Source: a virus
UHGV virus genome: UHGV-0172001
Strand: one strand, 5' to 3'
Length of the DNA stretch: 46,559 bases
The notes beneath the pieces are model-generated. The model ran no database searches. It was not told where the DNA came from and saw nothing but the letters and a program-made list of their open reading frames with translations. This document shows, one piece after another, positions 1,075-20,439 of this stretch. Made by a program: the position numbers and the translations under genes. Every line of letters starts with the position of its first letter. Positions within the stretch are counted from its first letter, which is position 1.

Positions 1075-2193
1075 TCAAACAACCAATTTAACCCATTCCT
1101 GACCACGAGTATCGTTATAACGATCGGTGGTTGCCTGGACTTTATGTCCCAGTAATGTTTTTGTATCAATACCCTGCGCGCGGTACAGTCGTTCTGACAG
1201 GGAGCGTTGTTCATGAAATGTTGGCGGAGTTTTTCCTGCTGGTGGAGTTATCCCAGCCAGATCCCGTGCTTTGGCAAAGTAGTCGCTCAGGTTGTCTTTA
1301 CTCATCGGCTTTGGTTGTTTCTGGTGCCGACTATGGATTAGATATGGACTTAATATTCTGTCTCGGCACCCATCAATAACTTCTTTTAACGTTATCCCAA
1401 TGGCATCACAGCGTAGTGTAAGCGGTAACGCCAGACGCATTCCGGTTTTTCCCTGGGTGATATGCAAGTGTTCGTTCCACACATCTGAAAAACGCATGTG
1501 GCAAATGTCATCACGGCGCTGACCAGTAACAATCGCAAGAAGCATTGCGTTACGGATAAAGTGTTTTTCAGGCGTTGCGTTGTAAATTTTTTGCCAGTCT
1601 TCCAGGGTGAGCCTGGCTCTAGTTACTTTAGGGATCGGTTTACGGGTAGCCTCCGGAGGATTCCATCCAGGAGGAACTTCCCCTGCATGCTGTGCTTCTT
1701 TATAAATATCAACCCATAATCCACGATTTACTCTCGCTGTGCTGACCATGTCTTTATCCAGCCACTCATCCAGTATTAATGCAAAGTCTCTTACTTCCAG
1801 TTCTTTCAATGGGTAGTTTCCCAGACGGGAAACCAGGTATGCAGCCATTCGGGCTTTTTCTTTGTGAGTTGTAGCTGCAATATCTCCATTTTTCAGTCGC
1901 GTGTCCTGTATTTTCAGATATCGATCAACCCATGCCTTTAATCTGATACCCCGACGTTTTGTTGCTGACGGGCTTTCATCAATTTTGCGCATGAAATATT
2001 CAGCTTCTGCTGCTGCTATTCGCTGATTGGCTGTGGAAGCAATTTTTTCTGCTTTACCTTTATCTGTTCCGAGTCCGTGAAATTTTCCAGTCACAGGGTT
2101 TTTATACTGGTAGTAAACCCTGCCAGTTCTGCGATCAAACTTTTCGTAAAGACCGGCTACGTCAGTGCTGTTTTTTCGTGGCCTCGGTGACAT
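1075..2193 (-). CDS. int: Lambda-family tyrosine integrase
   Basis: 372 aa; C-terminus HEQRSLSERLYRAQGIDTKTLLGHKVQATTDRYNDTRGQEWVKLVV parallels the lambda Int catalytic C-terminus (H-x-x-R ... LLGH ... Y); start overlaps the xis 3' end as in lambda. Confidence 0.95.
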   Translation of the reverse strand: MSPRPRKNSTDVAGLYEKFDRRTGRVYYQYKNPVTGKFHGLGTDKGKAEKIASTANQRIAAAEAEYFMRKIDESPSATKRRGIRLKAWVDRYLKIQDTRLKNGDIAATTHKEKARMAAYLVSRLGNYPLKELEVRDFALILDEWLDKDMVSTARVNRGLWVDIYKEAQHAGEVPPGWNPPEATRKPIPKVTRARLTLEDWQKIYNATPEKHFIRNAMLLAIVTGQRRDDICHMRFSDVWNEHLHITQGKTGMRLALPLTLRCDAIGITLKEVIDGCRDRILSPYLIHSRHQKQPKPMSKDNLSDYFAKARDLAGITPPAGKTPPTFHEQRSLSERLYRAQGIDTKTLLGHKVQATTDRYNDTRGQEWVKLVV

Positions 2194-8466: not shown

Positions 8467-9414
8467 ATGAGCAGCAAGCTTCATGGTCTTGTCTGGGAAG
8501 GGTGTGCCTTCACCGGCATGATCTTATCCCGGGTGGCAGTAATGGCTCGCCTTGCAGACTACAGCAATGACGAAGGTGTGTCATGGCCTGCAGTGGAGAC
8601 TATTCGTCGTCAGATTGGGGCAAAGAGTGAATCAACGGTTAAAGCGGCGATAGCGGAACTGGAAAAGAACGGCTGGCTGACGAAGGAGGAACGTAAGGTC
8701 GGTGGGCGTAATGAAAGCAATATCTACCGTCTTAATGTGGAAAAACTCGAAGCAGCAGCAGCGGCGGCGCGTGAGGCATATAAACCGAAAAGAAAAATTA
8801 ACCCGGTAAAAAATGACCCGTCAAATATTGACCCCTCAACGGTTGACCCGTCAAATTTTGATGGATCAACCGTTGATAAAAAACAGCCGGTTAGGGGGGC
8901 GATGGTTGGCCCCGATCCGTCAGTATTAAAACCTGATCCGTCAGATAAAAGATCTTCTTGTCCGGAAGCTTCGCAACCGGACCTGCAGGCGGCTGAACAG
9001 GATTTTTTAACCCGACACCCTGACGCGGTTGTGTTCAGTGCGAAAAAACGCCAGTGGGGCAACCAGGAGGATTTAGCGTGTGCGCAGTGGATCTGGGGAC
9101 GAATCGTGAGTCTTTACGAACAGGCTGCCAGCGATGATGGTGAGATCACGCGACCGAAAGAACCCAACTGGACTGCATGGGCCAATGACGTGCGCACAAT
9201 GCGGATGCTTGATGGCAGAACTCACAGACAAATTTGCGAAATGTTTGGTCGGGTACAGCGGGATCCATTCTGGGTAAAAAACGTCATGAGCCCGTCAAAG
9301 CTTCGCGAAAAATGGGACGAACTGGTCATCCGCCTGGGGCGTTCGCCTGTACAGCGTTGTGTGAATCACATTTCTGAACCGGACACCGAAATTCCGCCGG
9401 GCTTCAGGGGGTAA
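8467..9414 (+). CDS. Putative replication initiator (O-like) with internal iterons
   Basis: N-terminal winged-helix-like region; central repetitive linker DPSNIDPSTVDPSNFDGSTVD encoded by the iteron DNA; position after the cro/cII-equivalent genes. Confidence 0.55.
   Translation: MSSKLHGLVWEGCAFTGMILSRVAVMARLADYSNDEGVSWPAVETIRRQIGAKSESTVKAAIAELEKNGWLTKEERKVGGRNESNIYRLNVEKLEAAAAAAREAYKPKRKINPVKNDPSNIDPSTVDPSNFDGSTVDKKQPVRGAMVGPDPSVLKPDPSDKRSSCPEASQPDLQAAEQDFLTRHPDAVVFSAKKRQWGNQEDLACAQWIWGRIVSLYEQAASDDGEITRPKEPNWTAWANDVRTMRMLDGRTHRQICEMFGRVQRDPFWVKNVMSPSKLREKWDELVIRLGRSPVQRCVNHISEPDTEIPPGFRG
8814..8944. repeat. Iteron array (candidate replication origin) inside the initiator gene
   Basis: Repeated 11-13-bp units TGACCCGTCAAAT / TTGACCCCTCAAC / TTGACCCGTCAAAT / TGATGGATCAACC, plus two GATCCGTCAG copies. 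Confidence 0.6.
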
Positions 9415-12549: not shown

Positions 12550-13112
12550 TGATTAATCGAACCAAACTGGAACACATTCTCGAATATGCCAGGCAGCAGA
12601 AATGTATTGGGCAACTTTGTAAAATTCCACCAGGAGATATGGTTGAAATCGTGGAAATGGCCATGCGTAAGGCTGGCAACTCTCCGGTAACTCCGGCTCG
12701 CCTGCCTGGTGGTTTCACCATTGAGGATGCGAAGGAGTTACATGAAGACCTGGTTCGCAGCCACATAAGCCAGGCTTTAAGTGGTGAAAAGATGAAAAAG
12801 AACGATCGCGATACTGATTTGCGCTGGATTCATGGCGTTATAGTACAGGCAGCGTGGTTTGTGAAAGCTTCACTGGATGCGTTGCCTGAACCGCTGCGGG
12901 AGGAGAAGGGAGGAAGTGCCAACTGTACTGCCAGTCATGGTACAACCGACAATCCACCAGTACCAGGCAAACAGACTGACGAATTAACCATGCTGGTTAA
13001 GCAATTGGTCAGTCAACTGAAGAAAGTGAAGCCGGACTGTAAATTGCCGGATAAGGCGATGGACTACCTGAAACGGAACGAACTGATAAGTGCGGAGGAT
13101 GTTTTGCGATGA
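12549..13112 (+). CDS. Hypothetical protein
   Basis: 187-aa ORF. Confidence 0.5.
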   Translation: MINRTKLEHILEYARQQKCIGQLCKIPPGDMVEIVEMAMRKAGNSPVTPARLPGGFTIEDAKELHEDLVRSHISQALSGEKMKKNDRDTDLRWIHGVIVQAAWFVKASLDALPEPLREEKGGSANCTASHGTTDNPPVPGKQTDELTMLVKQLVSQLKKVKPDCKLPDKAMDYLKRNELISAEDVLR

Positions 13113-13192
13113 CCTGGCCTGAAGCATTCACAACGGTAGGAATTGCGATGGCGGTGGCGCTGATGGTGTATTCGATTTGCCGCTGGGGATAA
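13109..13192 (+). CDS. Possible 27-aa hydrophobic micro-protein
   Basis: ATGA overlap with the upstream gene; MTWPEAFTTVGIAMAVALMVYSICRWG; followed by a terminator. Confidence 0.25.
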   Translation: MTWPEAFTTVGIAMAVALMVYSICRWG

Positions 13193-13200
13193 CAAACAAA

Positions 13201-13228
13201 AACCCCGGATTGATGGTCCGGGGTTTTT
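13201..13228 (+). terminator. Rho-independent terminator
   Basis: AACCCCGG-attgatggt-CCGGGGTT plus T run; near-copy of the hairpin at 1005-1029. Confidence 0.7.
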
Positions 13229-13509
13229 GAAGGAAACAAAACAGAAACAACAATTGCCGTTACCTGTTGTTACCATGGCAAGTAAACGTATCTCAGGCGA
13301 GCGCATTGCGCCGTTCTGACGCAGATAAATTAGCCTGGATAGATGGTGCTGGCAATAAAAAATAGCGTTTTCTTATCGGTGTCGGTAAGATTGCTGCGGG
13401 TGCTTGAGGCTGTCTGCCTCGGGCATGCCACTGTAAGGCAGACAGAGAAAAGCCCCAGTTAACATTACGCGTCTTGCAGGACGCTTAACATTAATCTGAG
13501 GCCCAATCT

Positions 13510-13716
13510 ATGCCACACAAACATAGGTTAGCCTCTTACGGACCGAAAGGTCAAGGAGAAGCAGGCTATGAAGCAGCAAAAGGCGATGTTAATCGCCCTG
13601 ATCGTCATCTGTTTAACCGTCATAGTGACGGCACTGGTAACGAGGAAAGACCTCTGCGAGGTACGAATCCGAACCGGCCAGACGGAGGTTGCTGTCTTCG
13701 TAGACTACGAATCTGA
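13510..13716 (+). CDS. mok-like overlapping reading frame of the hok locus
   Basis: 68-aa ORF overlapping nearly all of hok in another frame, as in hok/mok/sok loci. Confidence 0.45.
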   Translation: MPHKHRLASYGPKGQGEAGYEAAKGDVNRPDRHLFNRHSDGTGNEERPLRGTNPNRPDGGCCLRRLRI

Positions 13717-13723
13717 GAAGTAA
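13568..13723 (+). CDS. Hok/Gef-family type I toxin (HokD/RelF-like)
   Basis: MKQQKAMLIALIVICLTVIVTALVTRKDLCEVRIRTGQTEVAVF is near-identical to HokD as recalled; 51 aa; structured leader with a 10-bp stem at about 13395-13430. Confidence 0.9.
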   Translation: MKQQKAMLIALIVICLTVIVTALVTRKDLCEVRIRTGQTEVAVFVDYESEK

Positions 13724-13792
13724 GAGTGACCAGGCGGGAGAGTAATCTCCCGCCACCTCTGATGTGTCGGCATCCTCAACGCACCCGCACTT

Positions 13793-13814
13793 AACCCGCT
13801 TCGGCGGGTTTTTT
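13793..13814 (+). terminator. Rho-independent terminator after hok
   Basis: AACCCGCTTCGGCGGG plus T6; identical 22-nt element recurs at 14633-14656. Confidence 0.75.
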
Positions 13815-13934
13815 CACGTACTGTGGTTGTGAATACGATTGGTATTAGGCTATGCTAACAACATTAGCCTGACTAATTTTGTATTGACTTGATTTTTTGT
13901 TAAAGAACAGGACGGAGAAGTAAGGGTACACCCA

Positions 13935-14114
13935 ATGAGCTACGCACTAAAAAAACACCCGCGATTGAGTATTCCCCCTCGCGATAAAAGCGTTGTGGCA
14001 GCTCCGCGCCCGGCTATTGATGAAAATTGCACACATCGTGAGCAGGTGAAAAATGCTTTCGATTTCGGTTTTTCTCGTTACGAGAAGGCAATGGAAGAAC
14101 TTTCAAAAGTGTAA
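13935..14114 (+). CDS. Small protein upstream of the Doc-like gene; candidate cognate antitoxin, not Phd-like
   Basis: 59-aa ORF ending 19 bp before the Doc-like start; palindrome AGGCT-N-AGCCT at about 13845-13871 upstream. Confidence 0.4.
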   Translation: MSYALKKHPRLSIPPRDKSVVAAPRPAIDENCTHREQVKNAFDFGFSRYEKAMEELSKV

Positions 14115-14132
14115 TAATGGGTATTGTGCTCT

Positions 14133-14618
14133 ATGGCTGAGATTGTTGAAGGAGTGCACTATCTTTCGGTTGATGATCTTACTGAAATCAATCGCCTTTT
14201 AATTGAGCTTCAAACACCAGATGAACCTGTAGGTGTGCTGAGTGTTGATAATTTAAGTTCTTCTCAGGCCCGTCCCAGCATGGTTCGATGGTATGAACAG
14301 ACTAATGACATGTTTGTACTGGCATCGGTATTGATTGAAAGTCTGATTCAGAATCATCCGTTTGCTAATGCGAACAAACGAACAGCTATGATGGCTGGTT
14401 ACGTCTTCTTGTTGTTGAATGGCTATGAGTTAACAGCACCAGGCGATGAAATCGTTGAAATGGCAGAGGGACTGGCCTGCAAAACCTATACTCGAGAAGA
14501 TCTCGAGAACTGGTTGTGTTATTGGTCTCGCGCGTATGACAGCCGGGAATTATGTAAAACAGGCGCAACTATTGTTTTGTATGAAACTATCAAGCTTAAA
14601 ATAGAACAGCAAAACTAA
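14133..14618 (+). CDS. Fic/Doc-family (death-on-curing-like) protein
   Basis: HPFANANKRTAMMAG matches the Doc/Fic motif HxFx(D/N)(A/G)NKR. Confidence 0.8.
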   Translation: MAEIVEGVHYLSVDDLTEINRLLIELQTPDEPVGVLSVDNLSSSQARPSMVRWYEQTNDMFVLASVLIESLIQNHPFANANKRTAMMAGYVFLLLNGYELTAPGDEIVEMAEGLACKTYTREDLENWLCYWSRAYDSRELCKTGATIVLYETIKLKIEQQN

Positions 14619-14632
14619 AGGTGCTTCCAATG

Positions 14633-14656
14633 AAAACCCGCTTCGGCGGGTTTTTT
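14633..14656 (+). terminator. Rho-independent terminator after the Doc-like gene
   Basis: AAACCCGCTTCGGCGGG plus T6. Confidence 0.75.
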
Positions 14657-15080: not shown

Positions 15081-15359
15081 GTGGTGCATTACAAGAAAAT
15101 TAACAATTCTGATAATTCAGCCGTCTTTGCCAGCAGGCACGGGCGGCGCTCTCACGCATTCAAATATGACTGGTACCAGCATGACCCCTGCACTGAAGAA
15201 CAGGCCGAATGGCTGATTCAGAACTACCGCAGGCGTGGGTACGAGTTTCAGAAAGACCTCAGTCCTGACTTCCGACACTGGATAATTTCTGTCAGGCTCC
15301 CTTATTCCGAACGCCCACCGTGTCCGTCCCGCACATTCCAGCAACGCATCTGGAGGTAA
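15081..15359 (+). CDS. Hypothetical protein
   Basis: GTG 15081 with GAGGA 5 nt upstream. Confidence 0.45.
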   Translation: MVHYKKINNSDNSAVFASRHGRRSHAFKYDWYQHDPCTEEQAEWLIQNYRRRGYEFQKDLSPDFRHWIISVRLPYSERPPCPSRTFQQRIWR

Positions 15360-15360
15360 C

Positions 15361-16410
15361 GTGCGGGTATTGCTTCGACCTGTTCCGGTACCGGAACTTG
15401 GGCTGGTGGTGCTAAAACCGGGCCGTGAATCCATGCGGGTATTTCATAATCCTCGAGTACTGGTGGAGCCGGAACCGAAAAGCATGTGCAGTCTGCCGTC
15501 CGGAGTTGTTCCTGCCGTTCGCCAGCCGCTGGCGGAAGATAAATCATTGCTGCCATTTTTCAGCGACGAACGGGTGATTCGTGCTGCCGGCGGCGCTGGT
15601 GCACTGTCTGACTGGCTCCTGCGTCATGTTAAATCCTGCCAGTGGCCTCATGGTGACTACCATCACAGTGAAACCGTCATACATCGTTACGGTACCGGCG
15701 CGATGGTGTTGTGCTGGCACTGCGACAACCAGCTGCGGGACCAGACCTCAGAATCACTTGAGCAACTTGCTCAACAAAACCTGACAGCATGGATGATTGA
15801 CGTCATCCGTCACGCAATAAGCGGTGCGCAGGAGCGTGAATTATCGCTGGCTGAATTATCCTGGTGGGCTGTCTGCAATCAGGTGGCGGACGCACTACCG
15901 GAGGTAGTATTACGTCGTTCTCTGGGGTTACGTGCGGAAAAAATTCGCTCGGTGTACCGCGAAAGCGACATCATACCGGGAGAGCAGACAGCCACCAGCA
16001 TACTGAAGCAGCGCACAAAAAATATTGCGCTACCACCTCACGCCCACCAGCAACAGAACCCACCACAGGAAAAGACGGTGGTAAGCATTGCCGTTGATCC
16101 AGATTCTCCGGAATCTTTCATGAAGCGCCCTAAACGTCGCCGCTGGGTTAACGAGAAATACACGCGCTGGGTAAAGATGCAGCCGTGTGCGTGTTGTGGT
16201 AAGCCAGCCGACGATCCCCATCACCTGATTGGTCACGGTCAGGGAGGGATGGGAACAAAGGCCCACGATATTTTTACGCTACCGCTGTGCCGGGAGCATC
16301 ACAACGAACTTCATGCTGATCCGCTGGCATTTGAAGAAAAGCATGGTTCCCAGATTGATTTAATTTTTCGTTTTCTTGATCACGCCTTTGCAACCGGTGT
16401 GCTCGGGTAA
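15361..16410 (+). CDS. DUF968-type prophage protein with C-terminal HNH-like Cys/His cluster
   Basis: CACCGKPADDPHHLIGHGQGGMGTKAHDIFTLPLCREHHNELH; start uncertain (GTG 15361 or ATG 15433). Confidence 0.65.
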   Translation: MRVLLRPVPVPELGLVVLKPGRESMRVFHNPRVLVEPEPKSMCSLPSGVVPAVRQPLAEDKSLLPFFSDERVIRAAGGAGALSDWLLRHVKSCQWPHGDYHHSETVIHRYGTGAMVLCWHCDNQLRDQTSESLEQLAQQNLTAWMIDVIRHAISGAQERELSLAELSWWAVCNQVADALPEVVLRRSLGLRAEKIRSVYRESDIIPGEQTATSILKQRTKNIALPPHAHQQQNPPQEKTVVSIAVDPDSPESFMKRPKRRRWVNEKYTRWVKMQPCACCGKPADDPHHLIGHGQGGMGTKAHDIFTLPLCREHHNELHADPLAFEEKHGSQIDLIFRFLDHAFATGVLG

Positions 16411-16422
16411 AAGAGGTTACTG

Positions 16423-16797
16423 ATGCGTATAGAGTTTGTTTTGCCTTATCCGCCGACGGTGAACACCTACTGGCGTCGTCGTGGCAGCACATATTTTGTA
16501 TCAAAAGCCGGTGAGCGTTATCGCCGTGATGTGGCGCTTATTGTTCGCCAGCAGCGGCTGAAATCAAACCTGTCCGGAAGGCTGGCAATAAAAATTACTG
16601 CAGAGCCACCAGATAAGCGCCGTCGTGACCTGGACAATATTCTGAAAGCACCACTGGATGCGCTGACGCATGCGGGACTGCTTATCGATGACGAGCAGTT
16701 TGATGAAATTAATATTGTGCGCGGTCAGGTCGTTCCTGGTGGTCGGTTGGGCGTGAAGATTTACGAAATAATGCATGACGGGCAGGTCAAAAAATGA
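16423..16797 (+). CDS. rusA: Holliday junction resolvase RusA
   Basis: PDKRRRDLDNILKAPLDALTHAGLLIDDEQ parallels E. coli RusA [30 protein letters not shown]. Confidence 0.9.
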   Translation: MRIEFVLPYPPTVNTYWRRRGSTYFVSKAGERYRRDVALIVRQQRLKSNLSGRLAIKITAEPPDKRRRDLDNILKAPLDALTHAGLLIDDEQFDEINIVRGQVVPGGRLGVKIYEIMHDGQVKK

Positions 16798-17615
16798 AGC
16801 TGGAAGATTTACCGAAATACTATTCCCCGAAATCGCCAGGCCTGACTGATGCATCCGCCTCGACATCAAAAGATGCACTGAGTATCACTGATGTGATGGC
16901 TGCACAGGGCATGACACAGAACCGGGCTGAGATGGGATTTTCTGCGTTCCTGGGGAAAATGGGCATTAGTATGAACGACAGGGCGCGGGCAACAGAATTA
17001 CTGGCAGATTATGCATTAAGTCAGTGCGATCGCGTGGCGGCGTTAAGAAAACTTCCGGCAGAAATAAAACCGGCAGTGATGCGCATTATGGCTTCGTATG
17101 CTTTTGAGGATTATGCCCGCAGCGCAGCGAGTAAAAAGCAGTGCCCTTGTTGCCATGGGGAAAAATTTATTGAAAGCGAAGTTTTTACAAACAAGGTTCA
17201 GTATCCGGATGGTAAGCCGCCAGTATGGGCAAAGTGTACAAAAGGCGTGTATCCGTCTTACTGGGAAGAATGGAAAAAAATCCGGGAGGTGGTGAAAGTT
17301 TCCTGTCCTGAATGTAAAGGGAAGGGGGAGATCTCCACTGCCTGTAAAGACTGCCGTGGGCGTGGTGTTGCCATTCATCGTGAAGAGTCAGAAAAACGGG
17401 GTATGCCTGTTATCAGGGACTGCCGGCGTTGTGGCGGTCGTGGCCATGAAAGATTACCGTCAACGGAGGCATTTAATGCCATATGCAAAGTGACGAGTGC
17501 TATCACGCTTGATACATGGAAAAAATCAGTGAAACGCTTTTACGATACGTTGGTGGTTCGGTTTGACATTGAAGAGGCATGGGCAGAGCGGCAGTTAAAG
17601 AGGGTAACGCGATAG
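16794..17615 (+). CDS. Late-gene antiterminator Q (phage 82/933W-type)
   Basis: SPKSP, TDVMAAQGM, ASYAFEDYARSAA, multiple CxxC zinc knuckles, RFYDTLVV; followed by a promoter-like element and terminator. Confidence 0.85.
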   Translation: MKLEDLPKYYSPKSPGLTDASASTSKDALSITDVMAAQGMTQNRAEMGFSAFLGKMGISMNDRARATELLADYALSQCDRVAALRKLPAEIKPAVMRIMASYAFEDYARSAASKKQCPCCHGEKFIESEVFTNKVQYPDGKPPVWAKCTKGVYPSYWEEWKKIREVVKVSCPECKGKGEISTACKDCRGRGVAIHREESEKRGMPVIRDCRRCGGRGHERLPSTEAFNAICKVTSAITLDTWKKSVKRFYDTLVVRFDIEEAWAERQLKRVTR

Positions 17616-20284: not shown

Positions 20285-20360
<76 letters not shown>

Positions 20361-20363
20361 TAT

Positions 20364-20439
<76 letters not shown>

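Follow-up and report, generated by a model that had tools for sequence, protein, structure and literature searches.

The virus genome UHGV-0172001, whose 46,559 nucleotides (nt) were analysed here at full length (the window), is a lambdoid prophage with a small toxin gene, hok, between its O-like replication gene and Q. It is very probable that positions 13386-13814 form a type I toxin-antitoxin module, hok/mok/sok, which is intact and belongs to the prophage subtype hokW-sokW; its expression would be expected by analogy. This kind of locus is already known and the sequence itself is nearly known. What was observed here is that every sequence element is present, together with its conservation, covariation and energetics, and that the toxin is identical to HokW of 933W and Sakai prophage 5 (Sp5). 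An initial annotation, made by reading the DNA, had described a complete-looking hok/mok type I locus inside a prophage, and that description stands, since a protein model and an RNA model agree and the context is lambdoid.

The toxin is encoded by the following two features.

13568..13723, plus strand: hok toxin gene, 51 amino acids (aa), MKQQKAMLIALIVICLTVIVTALVTRKDLCEVRIRTGQTEVAVFVDYESEK
13554..13558, plus strand: hok Shine-Dalgarno (SD) sequence AGGAG, 9 nt upstream of the ATG; homology to K-12 hokD starts here

The protein matches Pfam PF01848 (HOK_GEF) with 81.1 bits (cutoff 22, E=4e-23) over profile positions 1-42 of 42, in agreement with the 51-aa Hok/Gef-family toxin that had been proposed. 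The near-identity to HokD (RelF) proposed along with it also holds (47 of 51 residues shared with K-12 HokD) but is better put differently, as HokW of 933W and Sp5 is closer (51 of 51); the R1-type Hok of plasmid R100 shares 23 of 51. An identical Hok protein is encoded in at least 25 IMG/VR viral contigs. Takada et al. (2021, PMC8621323) found that HokW causes growth arrest and resides in the inner membrane; by its identity to HokW the present copy is presumably toxic as well.

On the RNA side, Rfam family RF01794 matches positions 13398-13570 of the plus strand over its full model (1-157) with 109.4 bits, compared to a gathering score of 59 (E=3e-25), and it is the only non-tRNA family at or above its gathering score anywhere in the window. 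RF01794 is named 'sok antitoxin'. Its match, however, lies on the hok-encoding strand with its 3' end on the hok ATG, which means that the model recognises the leader of the hok mRNA and not the antisense RNA; automatic annotation by RF01794 would therefore place 'sok' on the wrong strand and with the wrong extent. The unconstrained fold of 13398-13814 (417 nt) has a minimum free energy (MFE) of -177.5 kcal/mol (z=-8.15 versus shuffles), and together with the Rfam E-value this excludes chance.

Megablast searches (phages, plasmids and complete Escherichia coli genomes) delimit the conserved unit to query bases 191 to ~615, i.e. 13390-13814 of the window, while 13200-13390 is common to only 26 E. 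coli genomes. Of the extent initially given (13300-13814) the end is thus right and the start is not, as the module begins at ~13386-13398, about 90 nt further right. Positions 13300-13385 were rejected as a regulatory part of the locus, because hok-locus homology ends at ~13386-13390 and the small open reading frames (ORFs) there (30-39 aa) are unsupported. Weak Rfam matches at 13192-13352 and 13728-13814 (STnc30, rsmX, leader models and others) were likewise discarded, being far under their gathering scores and driven by terminator hairpins.

The elements of the hok mRNA, with definitions and mechanism taken from PMC9841398, are the following.

13386..13391, plus strand: candidate hok promoter -10 TAAGAT, 6 nt upstream of the putative mRNA start
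13398..13814, plus strand: putative full-length hok mRNA, ~417 nt; 5' end placed at the RF01794 start and the conserved GGGUGC, 3' end at the terminator
13398..13409, plus strand: tac (translational activator element), GGGUGCUUGAGG; predicted partner of fbi in the full-length and of ucb in the truncated mRNA, nearly invariant
13410..13445, plus strand: leader hairpin, 13410-13419 pairing with 13436-13445 (10 base pairs, bp)
13416..13429, plus strand: tac partner in the predicted 5' metastable hairpin, in which 13398-13410 pairs with 13416-13429
13450..13458, plus strand: ucb (upstream complementary box), the putative anti-SD of mok; in the full-length fold GCC/CAG faces the mok SD, and in the truncated conformer AAGC/CCC would pair with tac
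13498..13501, plus strand: mok SD sequence GAGG, predicted to be sequestered by ucb in the full-length and paired with dcb in the truncated mRNA; columns almost invariant
13510..13716, plus strand: mok reading frame, 68 codons, starting 58 nt before hok, out of frame with it and stopping 7 nt before the hok stop
13531..13535, plus strand: dcb (downstream complementary box) GCCUC, predicted to pair with GAGGC of the mok SD region (13498-13502) once the mRNA is truncated
13733..13754, plus strand: stable 3' hairpin of the full-length fold, 9 bp with a GUAA loop
13774..13786, plus strand: fbi (fold-back inhibition element), CCUCAACGCACCC; 12 bp with tac, C13780 bulged
13793..13814, plus strand: intrinsic terminator, 7-bp stem, UUCG loop and U-run, in common with K-12 hokD

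Relatives have a T-A-x-x-x-T hexamer in the same column as the candidate -10 (TAGAAT in 36, TATATT in 12, TAAGAT in 11, TACAAT in 8 and TATAAT in 7). The closed state of the mRNA appears without any constraint: the MFE structure contains the 12 bp between tac and fbi (13398-13409 with 13774-13786), and in the full-length fold ucb (13452-13458) pairs with the mok SD region (13496-13502). The same folding procedure gives the closed state for the loci of R100 and 933W. The structured leader with a 10-bp stem and the strong terminator (AACCCGC-TTCG-GCGGGTT plus T-run) that the initial annotation had pointed out are both found, the leader stem being 93.8% paired in the 90 sequences of the alignment described below. 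For 3' ends at 13764-13772 the 5' metastable hairpin is the MFE structure; it is also predicted in 933W, and a metastable 5' structure of the same sort has been described for R1 (PMC9841398). By analogy with R1 in the same source, the 3' hairpin is presumed to form the 3' boundary and the protector of the processed mRNA.

Opening of the closed mRNA would depend on the removal of fbi. With fbi present, the open conformer (tac/ucb plus SD/dcb) costs 14.6 kcal/mol above the MFE, and after truncation at seven end points (13756-13772) it costs only 0-1.9 kcal/mol. By the same measure, the active 933W locus gives 14.6 kcal/mol with fbi and 0.6-2.5 kcal/mol after truncation. In terms of modelled energies, the fold-back switch is therefore present and has the same size as in the working 933W copy. 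Across the alignment, the tac/ucb pairs are 98.4% paired and four pairs of the SD/dcb helix 99.2%.

The alignment comprises 90 distinct mRNA-equivalent sequences including R100, taken from Hok loci in viral contigs and in species-representative genomes (among them Escherichia species, Shigella, Kluyvera, Citrobacter, Pantoea, Photorhabdus and Erwinia), and it supports the helices through compensatory changes. For the full-length structure, 89.1% of cells are paired, 30 pairs are changed on both sides and the covariation score is 0.154, compared to 38-47%, 12-22 pairs and 0.04-0.06, respectively, when the partners are slid, a control that is inflated by the tested structure having been derived from the window itself, in sequences that are moreover mutually related. 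None of 500 shuffles reached the observed values, and the truncated-state structure is 90.3% paired. Of the two tac/fbi segments, one is paired to 95.3% and the other to 88.1%; a U-A pair of 72 sequences is replaced by C-G in 12. In the leader stem, six of the ten pairs are changed on both sides (A-U 52, G-C 19, U-A 7), the hairpin targeted by Sok has a compensatory change (A-U 59, G-C 28), and the 3' hairpin is 95-97% paired with both-side changes in five of nine pairs (G-C 47, A-U 35).

The antisense RNA and its promoter lie on the opposite strand.

13448..13518, minus strand: Sok antisense RNA, ~71 nt, ends transferred from the annotated sokW of 933W
13525..13530, minus strand: Sok promoter -10 TAACCT (plus-strand AGGTTA), identical to 933W/Sp5
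13549..13554, minus strand: Sok promoter -35 TTGACC, 18-nt spacer, read from the sequence

In the 933W locus (L001) sokW is annotated at 1559..1629 of the minus strand, with an offset of 11889 to the window, and by position the antisense segment of the window is homologous to it. In the predicted fold (-29.6 kcal/mol, z=-4.56), nine unpaired nt at the 5' end precede a long hairpin, which is followed by a U-rich tail. Its -10 TAACCT is the majority allele (45 of 90 relatives), and the -35 TTGACC occurs in 25 of 90, the remainder having TTGCC(T) with a 17-nt spacer. The position of the -35 aligns with TTGCGC in R100, which we take to be the Sok -35 of R1. In Sp5, a 'pro-less' construct in which primer YO-421 changed TAGGTTA to CCGGCTC lost antitoxin activity (PMC8621323), and the window reads TAGGTTA at that position. 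The same study showed that sokW expressed from its own promoter neutralises HokW, with partial dependence on RNase III and Hfq, and its sokW northern probe covers the equivalent of 13489-13518 (PMC8621323). The comparison with reference hok/sok loci, which the initial annotation had proposed as a check, thus located the Sok promoter as well as the fold-back elements, and at the level of sequence both promoter and RNA appear intact; that Sok is transcribed would follow by analogy.

The overlapping mok-like frame that had been noticed was found as an ORF of 68 aa, with its GAGG 8 nt upstream. It has no match in Pfam or NCBIfam, as expected for a coupling frame. The mok ATG is kept in 85 of 90 relatives, together with GAGG, while the frame relative to hok is variable, so that the peptide as such is not conserved.

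mok-hok spacing 57 nt: 63 of 90, including 933W; 'Mok' extends Hok in frame at its N-terminus
mok-hok spacing 58 nt: 13 of 90, including the window and Rac, and likewise R100; out of frame, ending 7 nt (in R100, 4 nt) ahead of the hok stop
mok-hok spacing 56 nt: 8 of 90; the frame has 19 codons and runs to the hok start

Spacings of 57 and 58 nt are set apart by a single-base indel in the GACC-GAAA-GGUC hairpin (13541-13552). Since the frame varies while start codon and SD are kept, mok would seem to act by being translated rather than via its peptide.

The closest well-studied relative is hokW-sokW (933W/Sp5, AF125520), annotated with mokW, hokW and the antisense sokW, to which the DNA is 92% identical across 13390-13796. 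Both loci have tac, ucb, dcb, fbi, the 3' hairpin, the Sok -10 TAACCT and the 14.6 kcal/mol switch, as well as a long Sok hairpin with an extra GCGUC/GACGC top and an upstream 27-aa hydrophobic ORF. They differ in the mok-hok spacing (58 nt and 68 codons in the window; 57 nt in 933W, where Mok is an in-frame 19-residue extension of Hok with 70 codons), in the Sok -35 (TTGACC with an 18-nt spacer versus TTGCCT with a 17-nt spacer) and at several of the 20 nt at the Sok 5' end. After fbi, 933W lacks the AACCCGC terminator that the window has, and its hokW lies near the right end of the genome on the opposite strand, whereas in the window hok is found in the early region, ahead of Q and in the same orientation.

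The mechanism of hok/sok (parB) was established in plasmid R1 (PMC9841398). For the analysis, R1-type loci were represented by that of R100 (NC_002134). This locus is taken to be of R1 type, in line with the identity figure quoted in PMC8621323. It resembles the window locus in architecture, in all named RNA elements, in the position of the Sok promoter and in the closed fold (tac/fbi and ucb/SD), and its mok is equally out of frame at 58 nt (mok ATG 2310, hok ATG 2368). The leader, in contrast, is only ~64% identical, the Sok -10 is TATCCT, and the Sok hairpin is shorter, without the 16 nt that the window has as an insertion in the Rfam alignment. Furthermore, R1 hok/sok is plasmid-borne and has a role in post-segregational killing, whereas the window copy is prophage-borne. 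Chromosomal loci of the hokC (gef) type in Escherichia (L018-L026; 78-80% protein identity) align throughout and follow the same tac/fbi and ucb/SD logic, but differ in their short Sok-target hairpin, other -10 alleles and chromosomal context.

A number of points weigh against an intact and active locus. The NCBIfam Hok models score the toxin under their curated cutoffs (53.6 versus 73 and 38.8 versus 89). The hok promoter has no recognisable -35, the Sok -10 fits the sigma-70 consensus at only three of six positions, and a consensus scan of 13150-13950 called neither promoter. That scan likewise did not call the hok terminator, probably because the extended stem takes up two T's, and it was treated as uninformative here rather than as evidence of absence. 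Plain MFE folding gives the open fold at only one of four truncation end points of the window; it also misses the published truncated fold of R100, which served as positive control and whose open truncated state has been established experimentally. Given this end-point dependence and the failure of the control, thermodynamic prediction of the truncated state is no strong test, for which reason plain MFE was replaced by the energy gaps for the enforced conformer given above. The tac/ucb and SD/dcb segments are almost invariant, so that they offer conservation only and no covariation. The leader is ~88% identical to that of 933W, with a differing Sok 5' patch and the 1-nt insertion that shifts the mok frame. 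Decay of such loci is, moreover, common, and some close relatives are visibly broken.

These points could be taken to mean that the window holds a decayed, non-functional relic like most K-12 hok loci, in which promoter activity, processing or coupling has been lost by point changes. Broken relatives do exist: E. coli AH19B041 has a stop at hok codon 4, three loci (L011, L041 and L088) carry a near-identical coding sequence with an unrelated leader, and in two others (L018 and L131) foreign sequence replaces the 3' elements. The promoters are weak by consensus, and the mok frame is unlike that of the experimentally active 933W copy. The window copy, on the other hand, has all elements with correct spacing and open ORFs, a toxin identical to an active one, an unchanged validated Sok -10 and an energy switch equal to that of 933W. 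In the functional R1 locus mok is arranged in the same out-of-frame way, and selection would act against a toxin left intact while Sok no longer works. A relic is therefore rather improbable, and the locus appears complete and is probably active, with transcription, processing, Sok turnover and toxicity of the present copy expected to resemble those of its studied relatives.

Among E. coli loci, that of AH19B041 (NZ_CP196316; L002 6369-6524) alone matches the 631-nt query over its entire length, with 95.3% identity. A C-to-T change gives TAA at codon 4 of its hok, and the Prokaryotic Genome Annotation Pipeline (PGAP) calls a 45-aa 'Hok/Gef family protein' from an internal ATG. This copy illustrates decay.

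A different alternative would be an orphan of the hokD/relF type, i.e. a toxin ORF only, expressed by read-through if at all and free of antisense control, which is the situation in the K-12 prophage Qin. Close relatives are indeed labelled 'hokD' by PGAP, and the coding sequence and 3' region (13554-13813) are 93.9% identical to K-12 hokD, which also has fbi, the 3' hairpin and the terminator. In addition, positions 15096-16163 of the window are 87% identical to the rem/ydfU part of Qin, which together with the match of 13554-13813 makes the locus syntenic with hokD in its position relative to the ydfU-like gene upstream of Q (with Doc replacing the intervening sequence). The homology of K-12 hokD begins only at the hok SD, however, directly upstream of which lies relE, and K-12 hokD has no RF01794 match and is without leader, tac, ucb, mok start and Sok gene and promoter. 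The window has the full 170-nt leader (109 bits), mok, tac, ucb, dcb and the Sok region and, as had been noted at the outset, is without relBE upstream. The orphan is thus refuted at the level of sequence and can be given practically no credence, the PGAP label 'hokD' being a name by protein similarity and not by architecture. Most likely, judged from these sequences, the window locus is the intact form and K-12 hokD a truncated derivative.

The mechanism is most likely that of plasmid R1 and, within the subtype, of prophage Sp5. By analogy, a weak promoter would make a stable hok mRNA of ~417 nt, which tac-fbi pairing would close while ucb covers the mok SD, so that the full-length mRNA would be neither translated nor bound by Sok. 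Slow 3' trimming to the hairpin at 13733-13754 would then remove fbi, upon which tac would move to ucb and the mok SD to dcb and the SD would open. For as long as the short-lived Sok is made (minus strand, from ~13518 to 13448), it would pair with the mok start region and the duplex would be destroyed. Once Sok synthesis stops, mok would be translated and hok with it by coupling, and the 51-aa Hok would insert in the inner membrane and kill or lyse the cell.

With respect to the biological role, mitomycin C leads to loss of sokW and to RecA-dependent induction of HokW in Sp5, and deletion of the locus halves Sp5 release (PMC8621323). Help to host lysis and phage release after induction is consequently the best-supported role for a prophage-borne copy, with prophage addiction and exclusion of other phages as alternative or additional roles. 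It must be noted that the early-region location, unlike that of hokW near the right end of 933W, counts against a simple transfer of the Sp5 role, which may not apply here. It is conceivable, as a speculation, that the co-orientation with the delayed-early operon, downstream of a terminator, would allow anti-terminated transcription to silence the convergent Sok promoter and so couple Hok to induction.

That the same mechanism serves mainly prophage addiction or abortive-infection defence instead of lysis is a possibility to be taken seriously, although not the favoured one. The locus adjoins a second toxin module (Doc, TIGR01550 126 bits) in an accessory region that extends from the replication genes to Q, and phage accessory and defence genes often cluster in such regions. 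R1 hok/sok stabilises plasmids and, from a high-copy plasmid, cut T4 plating by 42% (as cited in PMC8621323). Yet the sole direct experiment on this subtype found promotion of phage release and not defence (PMC8621323), and no PADLOC model matched Hok, the 59-aa ORF that follows it, Doc or their neighbours. Lysis help thus remains the preferred role.

The part of the locus that differs most among relatives is found where Sok and mok overlap.

13503..13524: hypervariable patch, where the 5' tail of Sok, the opening codons of mok and the loop of its target hairpin fall together (13505-13512 pairs with 13522-13529 in that hairpin)

In 51 close relatives, entropy peaks at 13500-13524 (mean up to 0.85 bit versus at most 0.05 in the adjacent leader), and 13503-13524 has 19 alleles compared to 1-10 in flanks of equal length. 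The allele of the window, CCAATCTATGCCACACAAACAT, is private to it (found in 0 of 50 close relatives). The 5' 20 nt of Sok differ from those of relatives by 1-8 nt, mostly 5-6, and the other 51 nt by 0-4. Per nucleotide, the recognition end of Sok changes about five times as fast as the remainder of the RNA. A possible but doubtful explanation is that these ~20 nt (13499-13518) are a specificity code under diversifying pressure, by which co-resident hok/sok copies (median 2, up to 9) would be kept from cross-neutralising one another. As Sok is cis-encoded, changes stay self-complementary, and alleles are thus free to drift or to be selected apart; the variability may instead reflect a simple lack of constraint, a cis-antisense RNA always matching its own target. 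Related sequence is present in 4716 of 5426 complete E. coli genomes, at a median of 2 and a maximum of 9 places per genome, the closest copies being 95-97% identical and annotated as 'Hok/Gef family protein' or 'hokD'.

The gene order around the locus is as follows.

1075-2193, minus strand: integrase
after the integrase and before the O-like gene in gene order: RecE-like exonuclease
8467-9414: O-like replication protein
14124-14618: Doc-family toxin, after hok
15361-16410: protein matching a PHROG annotated as HNH endonuclease; close relatives labelled DUF968 by PGAP
16794-17615: Q
downstream of Q in gene order: large terminase subunit, then major head protein

The second toxin module directly after hok consists of a 59-aa ORF (13935..14114, phrog_2208) and the Doc/Fic ORF (14124..14618; TIGR01550 126 bits, Pfam Fic 46 bits). 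No Pfam family matches the 59-aa ORF, which may encode a Phd-like antitoxin; the order hok, 59-aa ORF, Doc is also found in E. coli AH19B041. The 22-nt hok terminator at 13793-13814, AACCCGCTTCGGCGGGTTTTTT, is duplicated exactly at 14635-14656, 842 nt downstream, so that the 59-aa/Doc cassette has one copy on either side. The second copy is followed by GTTGT..., which is also what follows the only hok terminator of relatives without Doc. It looks as if the cassette was inserted at the terminator, or swapped in there by recombination.

Upstream of the module, a 27-aa hydrophobic ORF, MTWPEAFTTVGIAMAVALMVYSICRWG, lies at 13109-13192 (plus strand) and overlaps the stop of the preceding 187-aa ORF (ATGA). 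It is found with 85% nucleotide identity and an open frame just upstream of 933W hokW (L001 1384-1467), where it is unannotated, and its product could be a small membrane protein accompanying hok. Between this ORF and the hok promoter, a strong 13-bp hairpin at 13197-13229 (called on the minus strand, but palindromic) has A-runs and T-runs on both sides and looks like a bidirectional terminator; it drives several of the sub-threshold Rfam matches. Downstream of Q there are two phage-borne tRNA genes, tRNA-Thr(UGU) at 20285-20360 and tRNA-Gly(UCC) at 20364-20438, both on the plus strand. Near-identical Hok-coding fragments also occur on contigs of 275-2995 nt assigned to Acinetobacter idrijaensis, Xanthomonas pisi and a Candidatus Scatousia metagenome-assembled genome (L017, L025 and L052), and these are probably contaminating E. 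coli or phage DNA instead of true occurrences.

Annotation should record the complete module, of the hokW/mok/sokW type, and place the Sok RNA on the minus strand, instead of calling the locus 'hokD' or a lone small ORF. It illustrates what K-12 hokD would have been before relBE replaced its leader, and it adds one allele to those of the Sok recognition end. If that end is indeed a specificity code, the natural alleles would be a panel for testing how cis-antisense toxin-antitoxin pairs avoid cross-talk, and they would also help to test whether lysis after induction is timed by prophage hok/sok.

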